This document shows, one piece after another, positions 11,998-14,399 of a stretch of 64,000 nucleotides of DNA; the first letter of the stretch is position 1, and each line of letters starts with the position of its first letter. The notes beneath the pieces were generated by a model, which had not been told where the DNA came from, searched no databases, and was given only the letters and a program-made list of their open reading frames with translations. The DNA comes from Planctomycetota bacterium (GTDB lineage: Bacteria > Planctomycetota > SZUA-567 > H5-PLA8): positions 18,104 through 82,103 of the forward strand of contig DASXUX010000022.1 in assembly GCA_036504595.1 (NCBI GenBank). The letters run 5' to 3'. The position numbers and the translations under genes were made by a program.

Positions 11998-13200
11998 ATG
12001 ATGCGTATCGCTTTCGTGATCGCCATCTTTTTGGTCAGTGCTTTCGTTTCCGCGGGCGAAAGCAACTGGGTTGGCGAAGCTAACAACGCTTTCGGCCTGG
12101 AACTGTACGCGCGGCTGGCGAGCAAGCCAGGCAACCTGTTCATCTCGCCCAGCAGCATCGAGACCGCTCTGGCCATGACCTACGCCGGCGCGCGCGGCAA
12201 CACCGCCGCCGAGATGGCCAAGGTTCTGCATCTGCCGGAAGGAGATAAAGTCCACGAAGATCTGGGAGTCTTTTTGAAGGGGCTCAACGCCGCGACGGGC
12301 CCTGACGGCAAACCGCGCGCTTTTGAACTGAGCGTCGCCAACCGGTTGTGGGGACAGAAGGGTTACGCCATCGTTTCCGCCTTCCTTTCGCTGAACAAAG
12401 AAAGTTACGGCGCCGGTCTGGAGGAACTCAATTTCGCCGAATCCGAAGCGGCGCGGGTGACGATCAACACGTGGGTCGAAAAGCAAACAAAAGACAGGAT
12501 CAAGAATCTCATTCCGCGGGGCGTGCTCGATGCTGCCACACGCCTGGTCCTGACCAACGCGATCTACTTCAAGGGCAAGTGGGAAGCGCCATTCACAAAA
12601 ACGGCGACGCGAGAAGCTCCCTTTCGCATCAGTGATGCCGAGCAGGTTCCCTGTCAGATGATGAGCGCCGGCGGCGATCACCTCTATATGGAGAACGAGA
12701 CCCTGCAGGCCTTGAAGCTGCCGTACCAGGGAAAAGAGCTCTCGATGATCATCCTCCTGCCCAAGACGAACGATCTCGCCAGGTTGGAGCGCAATCTCAC
12801 GACTGCCAATCTCGCAGCCTGGATCGGCAGCATGACCGAACCGATGGTCAGCGTCTCGTTTCCGCGCTTCAAGATGACTGCGGCCTTCATGCTGAAGTCT
12901 GATCTTCAAGCCCTCGGGATGAAGGATGCCTTTGTTTACCCACATGCCGACTTCACTGGAATCGAGCCGAAAAAAGAATTTTACGTCGGCGAAGTGCTGC
13001 ATAAAGCCTTTGTTGAGGTCAACGAGGAAGGCACCGAAGCCGCCGCCGCGACCGCTGTGATCGGCAAAACCGGCGGGCCGCCGCCGAAGCCGAAAGTATT
13101 CCGCGCCGATCACCCGTTTCTCTTCGTGATCCGCCACGAACAAAGCGGCGCGATTCTGTTCCTGGGTCGCTTGACCGATCCCTCCAAACAGGAGAACTAG
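11998..13200 (+). CDS. serpin (serine protease inhibitor), secreted
   Basis: Signal peptide. NAIYFKGKWE, a hinge EEGTEAAAATA, and a FRADHPFLFVIRH serpin C-terminal signature. SD GGAGGGGG. Confidence 0.85.
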   Translation: MMRIAFVIAIFLVSAFVSAGESNWVGEANNAFGLELYARLASKPGNLFISPSSIETALAMTYAGARGNTAAEMAKVLHLPEGDKVHEDLGVFLKGLNAATGPDGKPRAFELSVANRLWGQKGYAIVSAFLSLNKESYGAGLEELNFAESEAARVTINTWVEKQTKDRIKNLIPRGVLDAATRLVLTNAIYFKGKWEAPFTKTATREAPFRISDAEQVPCQMMSAGGDHLYMENETLQALKLPYQGKELSMIILLPKTNDLARLERNLTTANLAAWIGSMTEPMVSVSFPRFKMTAAFMLKSDLQALGMKDAFVYPHADFTGIEPKKEFYVGEVLHKAFVEVNEEGTEAAAATAVIGKTGGPPPKPKVFRADHPFLFVIRHEQSGAILFLGRLTDPSKQEN

Positions 13201-13202
13201 CC

Positions 13203-14399
13203 GTGCTCAAACCCCTCTGCTACGCTGCTGCTGTTATGGGCCTGCTGAGTTTCGCGACGCGCGGTGAAGAGGGCGACAAATGGGTCGCGGCGGCGAATAA
13301 CGCCTTCGCCGTGGAACTTTACGCCAAGCTTTCGCCGCAGGCCGGCAACCTCTTCTTCTCGCCCAACAGCCTCGAGACCGCTCTGGCCATGACCTACGCC
13401 GGCGCGCGTGGCCAGACTGCGGCGCAGATGTCTGCCGTTTTGCATCTGCCGCAAAAAGGCGACGCGCTGCATCAGGATTTGGCCGCGCTCATCAGTGAGC
13501 TGAATGGGAAAGGTAAGCGTAGCTTCGAACTCTCCGTCGCAAACGCCTTGTGGGGCCATAAAGGTTACGCTTTCCAGCCGGCGTTCCTCAAACTGGTGAA
13601 AGACAACTATGGCGCGGGACTGGAAGATGTTGATTTCGCGAACGAACCCGCCGCGCGAGCGACGATCAACGGCTGGGTCGAAAAACAGACGCATGAGAAG
13701 ATCAAGGATCTGATCCCCGTTGGAATTTTGAACGACCTGACGCGTCTGGTCCTGACCAATGCGATCTACTTCAAGGGAACATGGGAAGATCAGTTCGAGA
13801 AGAAAGCCACGCGCGACCAACCCTTCCACATCAGCGCGGCGGAGCAAGTGAACTGCTCCCTGATGACCCGCAAAGGCAAATACGCCTACTCCGAAAGCGA
13901 CAAGTTCCAAGCCGTGCAACTGCCGTACAAGGGCCGCGAACTTTCCATGATCGTCCTGCTGCCGCGCGCGGTGGACGGCTTGCCCGACCTGGAGCGCGAG
14001 TTGACGGCCGAGAACGCCGCCAAGTGGCTGGGCGAACTGAAGCAGAACGACGTGATTGTCTCGCTGCCCCGCTTCAAAGTGGAAGCGCAATTCTCGCTCG
14101 CCCCCGTGCTGCAAAGCCTGGGCATGAAGGACGCCTTTAGCGCTGCTGACGCCGATTTTTCCGGCATGACGGGCAACCGCGACCTGTTCATCACCGCCGT
14201 CCTGCACAAGGCCTTCGTGGACGTCAACGAAGAAGGCACGGAAGCCGCCGCCGCGTCGGCCGTTGTGATGGGCTTGCGCGGAATGCCCCCTCGCGAACCT
14301 CAGCCAAAAATCTTTCGTGCTGACCATCCGTTTATCTTCCTGATCCGCCACGAACAGAGCGGGGCAATCCTGTTCCTTGGCCGTCTCGCGAAACCCTAA
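13203..14399 (+). CDS. serpin paralog, secreted, with a predicted P1 Arg
   Basis: GTG start 3 nt after the serpin-1 stop, with SD AGGAGA. Same serpin signatures (FRADHPFIFLIRH). The reactive-centre loop differs: ...AVVMGLR-GMPP. Confidence 0.85.
   Translation: MLKPLCYAAAVMGLLSFATRGEEGDKWVAAANNAFAVELYAKLSPQAGNLFFSPNSLETALAMTYAGARGQTAAQMSAVLHLPQKGDALHQDLAALISELNGKGKRSFELSVANALWGHKGYAFQPAFLKLVKDNYGAGLEDVDFANEPAARATINGWVEKQTHEKIKDLIPVGILNDLTRLVLTNAIYFKGTWEDQFEKKATRDQPFHISAAEQVNCSLMTRKGKYAYSESDKFQAVQLPYKGRELSMIVLLPRAVDGLPDLERELTAENAAKWLGELKQNDVIVSLPRFKVEAQFSLAPVLQSLGMKDAFSAADADFSGMTGNRDLFITAVLHKAFVDVNEEGTEAAAASAVVMGLRGMPPREPQPKIFRADHPFIFLIRHEQSGAILFLGRLAKP

Follow-up and report, generated by a model that had tools for sequence, protein, structure and literature searches.

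Tandem serpin genes of the inhibitory type with divergent reactive-centre loops in a planctomycete

The P17–P9 hinge motif ExGTEAAAA is a mark of inhibitory serpins (PMC10090351; PMC8233489). Chordate-like serpins with this hinge occur in free-living prokaryotes (clade-B-like, 'hub' or Group S serpins; Spence et al. 2021, PMC8233489). In the chloropin of Chlorobium limicola (PDB entry 8GXV), the reactive-centre loop (RCL) reads VVMQLR/S, where the slash marks the P1–P1' bond, and mass spectrometry of the peptide freed by cleavage proved the P1 Arg (Xu et al. 2023, PMC10090351). Thrombin, KLK7, trypsin and other proteases are trapped covalently by chloropin, with k2 values of about 2.5–4.5e4 M-1 s-1 (PMC10090351). 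Miropin from Tannerella forsythia forms inhibitory complexes via three bonds, Val367-Lys368, Lys368-Thr369 and Thr369-Ser370. Here, two adjacent serpin genes (serpin A and serpin B, or A and B) are described from a 64,000-nucleotide stretch of a Planctomycetota metagenome-assembled genome (contig DASXUX010000022.1, positions 18,104 to 82,103), the whole of which is referred to as the window.

Chloropin is the best or second-best match of known structure for both proteins (E 1e-86 for A and 1.1e-90 for B). It shares the ExGTEAAAA hinge with the two copies and its VVMQLR/S loop is nearly the same as VVMGLR/G of B. The P1 Arg, however, is shared by B only, as A has Gly in this column. Among PDB sequences, human SERPINB1 (leukocyte elastase inhibitor, LEI; PDB entry 4GA7; the horse protein is 1HLE) ranks first for B (E 5.4e-94) and second for A, and its hinge EEGTEAAAATA is identical to that of A.

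With a probability of roughly 0.7, the pair is explained by a lineage-specific tandem duplication that gave rise to two exported (periplasmic or extracellular) inhibitory serpins with diverged baits, which would offer general protection against proteases. The genes and their putative ribosome-binding sites, read from the sequence, are as follows.

11998–13200, plus strand: serpin A coding sequence, 400 amino acids, ATG start, TAG stop at 13198–13200
13203–14399, plus strand: serpin B coding sequence, 398 amino acids, GTG start at 13203, TAA stop at 14397–14399
11985–11989, plus strand: Shine-Dalgarno-like GGAGG, 8 nt ahead of the ATG of serpin A
13190–13194, plus strand: Shine-Dalgarno-like AGGAG within the 3' end of serpin A, 8 nt ahead of the GTG of serpin B

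The sequence-only reading of this DNA had described two complete serpins 2 bp apart, the second with a GTG start and its own Shine-Dalgarno sequence. Coordinates, frames and full-length Pfam matches agree with that description. The gap comprises positions 13201–13202. Serpin A matches the Pfam family Serpin (PF00079; MEROPS I4) with an E-value of 7.9e-120 over profile positions 1–370 of 370, serpin B with 2.1e-124 over positions 2–370. The two proteins are 58% identical over 399 residues. The hinges EEGTEAAAATA (A) and EEGTEAAAASA (B), already recognized in that reading, are both located at residues 343–353, so that each copy has the inhibitory P17–P9 hinge EEGTEAAAA with Thr at P14 and small residues at P12–P9.

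For a closer inspection of the scaffold, A and B were aligned with alpha1-antitrypsin, 120 homologues and the members of four other serpin pairs. The alpha1-antitrypsin reference (mature form) is identical to chain A of PDB entry 2QUG at 394 of 394 residues. The positions inspected are the 51 conserved serpin positions reportedly listed by Irving et al. in 2000; 50 of the 51 listed letters agree with alpha1-antitrypsin, which has Phe at position 61 instead of the consensus Leu. A loss of shutter and breach residues would have pointed to non-inhibitory serpins, but these residues are intact and each copy retains 48 of the 51 positions. Both keep S53, S56, N186 and H334 of the shutter, W194 of the breach and E342, G344, T345 and A347 of the hinge. 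V218C and K290R deviate from the consensus in both copies, M220L in B and L327F in A.

AlphaFold2 models of A and B have a mean predicted local distance difference test score (pLDDT) of 91.9 and 90.4, respectively. Both models are in a loop-inserted, relaxed state (latent- or cleaved-like), with residues 345–358 (P15–P2) modelled as an inserted strand, the position of strand 4A. In the window, this strand corresponds to positions 13030–13071 (A) and 14235–14276 (B). Cleaved or latent serpins give the best superpositions with the model of A. Its best Foldseek match in the PDB is cleaved horse LEI (1HLE; E 1e-40, TM-score 0.93, r.m.s. deviation 1.3 Å). The serpin fold, characterized by three β-sheets and 8–9 helices, is thus predicted for the pair. 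The models are compatible with a loop that is competent for insertion. They also call for caution when the exposure of an RCL is read off such AlphaFold2 models. Sequence and models together support the assignment of A and B as complete serpins of the inhibitory type.

The RCLs were placed by ungapped alignment.

13024–13095, plus strand: RCL of serpin A, hinge EEGTEAAAA at 13024–13050, followed by TAVIGKTG/GPPPKPK
14229–14309, plus strand: RCL of serpin B, hinge EEGTEAAAA at 14229–14255, followed by SAVVMGLR/GMPPREPQPK

From the hinge to P1, both loops align without gaps with those of alpha1-antitrypsin (Met358), SERPINB1 (Cys344) and chloropin (P1 Arg). Counted from P17, P1 is the 17th residue, which is the canonical loop length in both copies. 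In A, P1 is Gly359 (codon GGC, 13072–13074), preceded by Thr358 at P2 and Lys357 at P3 (P5–P1/P1' IGKTG/G). In B, P1 is Arg359 (codon CGC, 14277–14279; P4–P1/P1' MGLR/G), as in Arg-specific serpins such as chloropin and antithrombin. The P1 codons are thus one base apart. The different P4–P1' residues and the P1 Arg of B, which had been predicted from the sequence, are borne out by this register, and the comparison with characterized serpins does not place the same P1 residue in both copies. On the P' side, the loop of B is three residues longer; the loops lead into the C-terminal motif as GPPPKPK-VFRADHPF in A and GMPPREPQPK-IFRADHPF in B. Because its loop resembles that of chloropin with the proven P1 Arg, B is very likely an inhibitor of trypsin-like, Arg-specific proteases.

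According to the standard suicide-substrate mechanism, a target protease would cleave the exposed RCL of A or B at the P1–P1' bond. The cleaved loop, with the protease still esterified, would then insert into β-sheet A as strand 4A, and the enzyme would be trapped. B would trap trypsin-like, Arg-specific serine proteases with Arg359 (VMGLR/G). For A, the P1 Gly359, Lys357 and Thr358 upstream of it and the Pro-rich P' side suggest a different or shifted specificity. The two genes are probably co-transcribed, and B may be translationally coupled to A via the 2-bp gap and the internal Shine-Dalgarno sequence. A general shielding of the cell envelope or the exoproteome from endogenous or environmental proteases is the proposed role. 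Export, inhibition, target classes and biological role of A and B are in each case what we infer from the features described here.

Serpin A may act through its P1 Gly or, by analogy with miropin, through a shifted reactive site at Lys357/Thr358. As miropin uses adjacent bonds, a bacterial serpin can work with a Lys-Thr bond that precedes the canonical P1 by one or two positions. This bears on the earlier conclusion that A and B have different target proteases. The difference at P1 holds; different targets are a possible consequence of it, and Lys357 at P3 of A could still serve basic-specific proteases. Both copies would then trap proteases of this type, B via Arg359 and A via the Lys357-Thr358 (P3–P2) bond, and the duplication would provide dosage or kinetic tuning. 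The three adjacent reactive bonds of miropin include the canonical P3 residue and a Lys-Thr bond like that of A. SERPINB1, similarly, uses both its P2 Phe343 and its P1 Cys344. Close relatives, moreover, differ in whether the basic residue sits at P3, P2 or P1 (P0002 VMRTG/S, P0003 VMKGR/A and P0021 IVPRN/G). Use of the canonical P3, on the other hand, shortens the inserted loop by two residues, and such a shortening reportedly lowers inhibitory efficiency in loop-length studies of alpha1-antitrypsin. The Pro-rich P' side of A (GGPPPKPK) is also strongly unlike that of B. Overlapping specificity is regarded as unlikely.

A change from Arg to Gly at P1 within the lineage of A is plausible. The single-base difference between the codons fits such a change, and close relatives with loops of the same length as that of A have Arg at P1 (P0003, see above, and P0004 VMLGR/A). 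Serpin A could accordingly be decaying or non-inhibitory after this substitution, that is, a substrate, a decoy or a protein with a new role, leaving B as the only working inhibitor. A is the faster-evolving copy, with distances to the nearest outgroups of 0.53–0.62 versus 0.47–0.58 for B, and Gly is a minority state at P1 (7 of 122 tallied sequences, comprising the 120 homologues, A and B). Against decay, A keeps its open reading frame, a Shine-Dalgarno sequence, a signal-like N-terminus, a perfect hinge and as many of the 51 conserved positions as B, and its serpin model is confident. Furthermore, P0002 and P0031 share its loop type (basic residue, Thr or Asn, Gly), which suggests that this type is maintained. 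Decay of A is regarded as very unlikely. A more speculative and distinctly unlikely variant is that A maintains a non-canonical bait, consisting of a basic P3, Thr or Asn at P2, Gly at P1 and a poly-proline P' segment. Such a bait might work through a shifted bond or on a protease class that serpins do not normally trap, for example one from the envelope or from a competitor whose cleavage is Gly/Pro-directed or Lys-specific. The pair would then shield a free-living planctomycete with two specificities.

The origin of the pair by duplication is suggested by a neighbor-joining tree, which groups A with B as sisters in 85.5% of 200 bootstrap replicates. The similarity of the two proteins is unevenly distributed: the hinge is identical (9 of 9 residues), the body is 58% and the C-terminal strands are 71% identical, and the variable loop reaches 33%. 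At the DNA level, identity is just 76–83% even in the best-conserved blocks. Thus, the duplication is old and has not lately been homogenized; the same values rule out recent gene conversion between A and B. The pair has a guanine-plus-cytosine (GC) content of 58–60% and a third-position GC content (GC3) of 73–75%. Both match the neighboring genes, so that the compositional test gives no signal of recent horizontal transfer. An assembly artefact or a strain chimera is excluded by the protein identity of 58%, which is that of true paralogs.

Both proteins have a signal-peptide-like N-terminus according to a hydropathy heuristic, in agreement with the earlier view that they are secreted.

11998–12054, plus strand: signal-peptide-like N-terminus of serpin A, MMRIAFVIAIFLVSAFVSA/GE
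13203–13256, plus strand: signal-peptide-like N-terminus of serpin B, MLKPLCYAAAVMGLLSFA/TR

In these lines, the slash marks the putative cleavage site. Serpin A starts with MMRIAFVIAIFLVSAFVSA/GESNW, its Kyte-Doolittle maximum over 10 residues is 3.49 and the small-x-small motif VSA (VSA/G) lies ahead of the conserved mature start ..W.G.ANNAF. From the GTG start, serpin B reads MLKPLCYAAAVMGLLSFA/TRGEE with the small-x-small site SFA/T. AlphaFold2 assigns a pLDDT below 50 to residues 1–19 of A and 1–23 of B. By a crude hydropathy test, 104 of the 122 sequences (120 clade members, A and B) possess a segment of this signal-like kind, located ahead of a conserved start of the mature protein, ..W(I/V)..ANNAFA. 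No lipobox is present in A or B. The majority of prokaryotic serpins bear N-terminal transport peptides (Spence et al., PMC8233489). Export of both proteins is likely, as judged from their N-termini.

The start of serpin B differs between this analysis and the public record. Serpin B is 100% identical to the public JGI protein P0001, which has 387 amino acids and starts at the ATG at 13236. An exact-sequence look-up with the GTG-start version gave no match. The hydrophobic, signal-like N-terminus depends on the GTG start, with a maximum hydropathy of 2.07 versus 1.32 with the ATG start, and homologues with 400–415 amino acids carry equivalent N-termini. Thus, the predicted GTG start at 13203 is better supported than the JGI start. 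Serpin A is identical to P0013, a public entry that NCBI names 'serpin family protein [Planctomycetota bacterium]'. P0001 and P0013 are both encoded on a single contig of 229,906 bp (Ga0376481_000107) from metagenome 3300035523. Both genes are therefore already recognized as serpins by automatic annotation. Long open reading frames on the minus strand opposite the pair (10969–13143 and 13197–14417) are the usual shadows of high-GC DNA.

Several observations weigh against the preferred explanation of two exported, inhibitory and co-transcribed sister serpins. The sister grouping comes from a simple distance tree, and 14.5% of the replicates lack it. Co-transcription is deduced only from the spacing of the genes, and the signal peptides were judged by hydropathy and the small-x-small rule only. 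Gly is unusual at P1 of an efficient inhibitor, so that A might inhibit poorly or not at all. Finally, the relaxed state of the models cannot itself inhibit and does not reveal how stable the native state is kinetically.

The genes flanking the pair are listed below.

10963–11943, plus strand: 326-amino-acid, weakly PHP/HisJ-like gene, 54 bp upstream of serpin A
10167–10844, minus strand: signal-bearing, TPR-like gene, divergent from the PHP-like gene
14508–15158, plus strand: TetR/CecR-family regulator of a downstream efflux unit (14455–18271)
16679–18271, plus strand: MFS transporter of the same efflux unit, which also includes an HlyD/RND-adaptor-like protein

The pair had been placed divergently next to a secreted protein and a PHP-domain protein. 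A divergent neighbor does exist, but it is the TPR-like gene, which diverges from the PHP-like gene; the latter is on the same strand as the serpins. Past the TPR-like gene, a glycosyltransferase-like membrane protein is encoded. The PHP assignment of the 326-amino-acid protein is based on sub-threshold NCBIfam matches to PHP-domain and histidinol-phosphatase families (E 6e-4 to 0.03; 19 bits versus a cut-off of 264). This protein has no Pfam match even at E-values up to 10 and no sequence match in the PDB. A DFHVHVG motif is located near its N-terminus and the NCBIfam matches are in its C-terminal third. It may be a divergent PHP-like hydrolase. Possibly, its gene is co-transcribed with the serpins, and it is treated as context rather than as a demonstrated functional partner.

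A scan for sigma-70 consensus sites and terminators revealed no plus-strand promoter- or terminator-like sites between 10963 and 14399, which is weak evidence for an operon because promoters were covered only as far as they match the sigma-70 consensus. A single sigma-70-like promoter match exists in the region, TTGACC-16-TATACT (14455–14482), and it lies ahead of the efflux unit. The TetR/CecR, HlyD and MFS efflux genes are a unit separate from the serpins.

No serine protease was found by Pfam in the 64-kb window, and no serpins besides A and B are encoded there. The nearest relatives of B (66–67% identity) are single serpins in unrelated neighborhoods, with no conserved synteny. Around related serpins in about 70 other species, no peptidase is found among the 25 neighbor families listed of 205, each of which matches at least two members (132 immediate neighbors); GNAT, sulfatase, methyltransferase and GntR families lead this list. 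Since no protease gene is linked to the pair here or appears among the families listed for relatives, general protection is likely rather than the control of a dedicated partner. The pair could instead regulate one or two dedicated endogenous secreted proteases encoded elsewhere in the genome, as a module independent of operon structure. In the proposal of Spence et al. (PMC8233489), prokaryotic serpins of the ancestral-like type protect against proteases of endogenous or exogenous origin, which is in line with such endogenous targets, and the inspection covered 64 kb of the genome. The missing serine protease, the unrelated contexts of the nearest relatives and the peptidase-free neighbor families argue against this, and a dedicated partner is considered doubtful. 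A and B behave as stand-alone genes, which is more in keeping with the role of housekeepers against endogenous or environmental proteases suggested by Spence et al. than with an inhibitor module built around one dedicated protease.

The sole peptidase-like match in the window is a weak one to Peptidase_C13 (legumain-like; E 3.3e-5) in a 383-amino-acid open reading frame at 61191–62342, about 47 kb away. This frame ends a DUF58, BatA-VWA, DUF4175 and GATase1-like cluster (51971–62342, plus strand) that resembles an aerotolerance operon. Elsewhere in the window, a c-di-AMP (ydaO-type) riboswitch (RF00379; 81.8 bits versus a gathering score of 38) is located at 30679–30822 on the plus strand. It is directly upstream of a 732-amino-acid open reading frame (30849–33047, plus strand), whose only Pfam match is SPFH/Band 7 and which is an unusual-looking downstream gene for it.

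Relatives of the pair are numerous. More than 8000 database proteins match at E-values below 1e-30, and a scan with one genome per species yielded at least 575 loci with relatives. By record titles, 33 of the best 80 species loci are from Planctomycetota; the others include Acidobacteriota, many candidate phyla and methanogenic archaea. The family is thus abundant in Planctomycetota, as it also is in Acidobacteriota and archaea, although Planctomycetes are mentioned 0 times in the main prokaryotic serpin phylogeny (Spence et al. 2021, PMC8233489). The literature search found no relevant work on serpins in Planctomycetes and no paper that joins prokaryotic serpins with a tandem arrangement.

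The 120 nearest homologues hardly vary in the hinge and in VFRADHPF, while the 12–19 residues between these two motifs are hypervariable in sequence and length. The canonical P1 residue in the 122 sequences is most often Thr (36), followed by Ala (14), Arg (13), Lys (13), Ser (12), Met (11), Leu (8) and Gly (7). Loops of the B type (x-L-R/A or x-L-R/G) occur in at least seven sequences.

Bacterial serpin pairs had been called uncommon. This proved roughly correct for the best 80 of the at least 575 species loci: a second serpin on the same strand within 6 kb is present at four of them, or about 5% of the roughly 78 informative loci (two have no usable serpin gene call). The pairs are as follows.

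L020, Planctomycetota metagenome-assembled genome (MAG), 3647–4924 and 5764–7092: same-strand serpin pair
L042, Gemmataceae MAG, 3436–4836 and 4967–6217: same-strand serpin pair, directly adjacent
L050, WOR-3 MAG, 2–556 and 2120–3361: same-strand serpin pair, one copy a fragment
L077, Bacillota MAG, 713–2059 and 2158–3537: same-strand serpin pair, directly adjacent

By direct reading, the two copies of L042, L050 and L077 have the same hinge but different loops; hinge and loop of the L020 pair were not extracted by the motif search. Sister grouping has a bootstrap value of 100% for L077, 76% for L042 and 51% for L020; L050 was left out of this tree because one of its copies is fragmentary. In the L077 pair, the signal-peptide region is identical in both open reading frames as extracted. 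Tandem duplication of prokaryotic serpins with divergence of the loops is uncommon but recurrent and independent, as in eukaryotic serpin clusters. The arrangement of A and B is, accordingly, not special.

The pair is an ordinary addition to a well-known family, and its mechanism is predictable from established serpin biology. Its importance is modest: prokaryotic serpins are functionally poorly understood, and no current idea is challenged. A sister pair on one scaffold with Arg and Gly at P1 is nevertheless a convenient natural experiment on how loops set specificity in bacterial serpins, and it could yield a stable Arg-specific inhibitor.

Chloropin is accelerated by DNA or heparin; mature A and B are mildly acidic, with a calculated pI of about 6.3–6.5. 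The clade B serpins, to which the SERPINB1 comparison refers, are intracellular and have no signal peptides, in contrast to the signal-like N-termini of A and B. Miropin is, like A and B as predicted, an exported bacterial serpin, and with its Lys-Thr bond in the RCL and several adjacent reactive bonds it is the precedent for a reactive site at Lys357/Thr358 of A. However, as a member of prokaryotic Group T it is a lipoprotein on the surface of a host-associated bacterium, whereas A and B lack a lipobox and come from an environmental metagenome. Miropin is also less similar to the pair than chloropin and SERPINB1 are, and it is absent from the best 60 PDB matches of B and from the 32 matches of A at E-values up to 1e-60. 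A parallel to the history of the pair is offered by the multi-copy siropins of Eubacterium siraeum and by the classic eukaryotic serpin clusters, in which duplication was reportedly likewise followed by divergence focused on the RCL, with hinge and scaffold remaining fixed.

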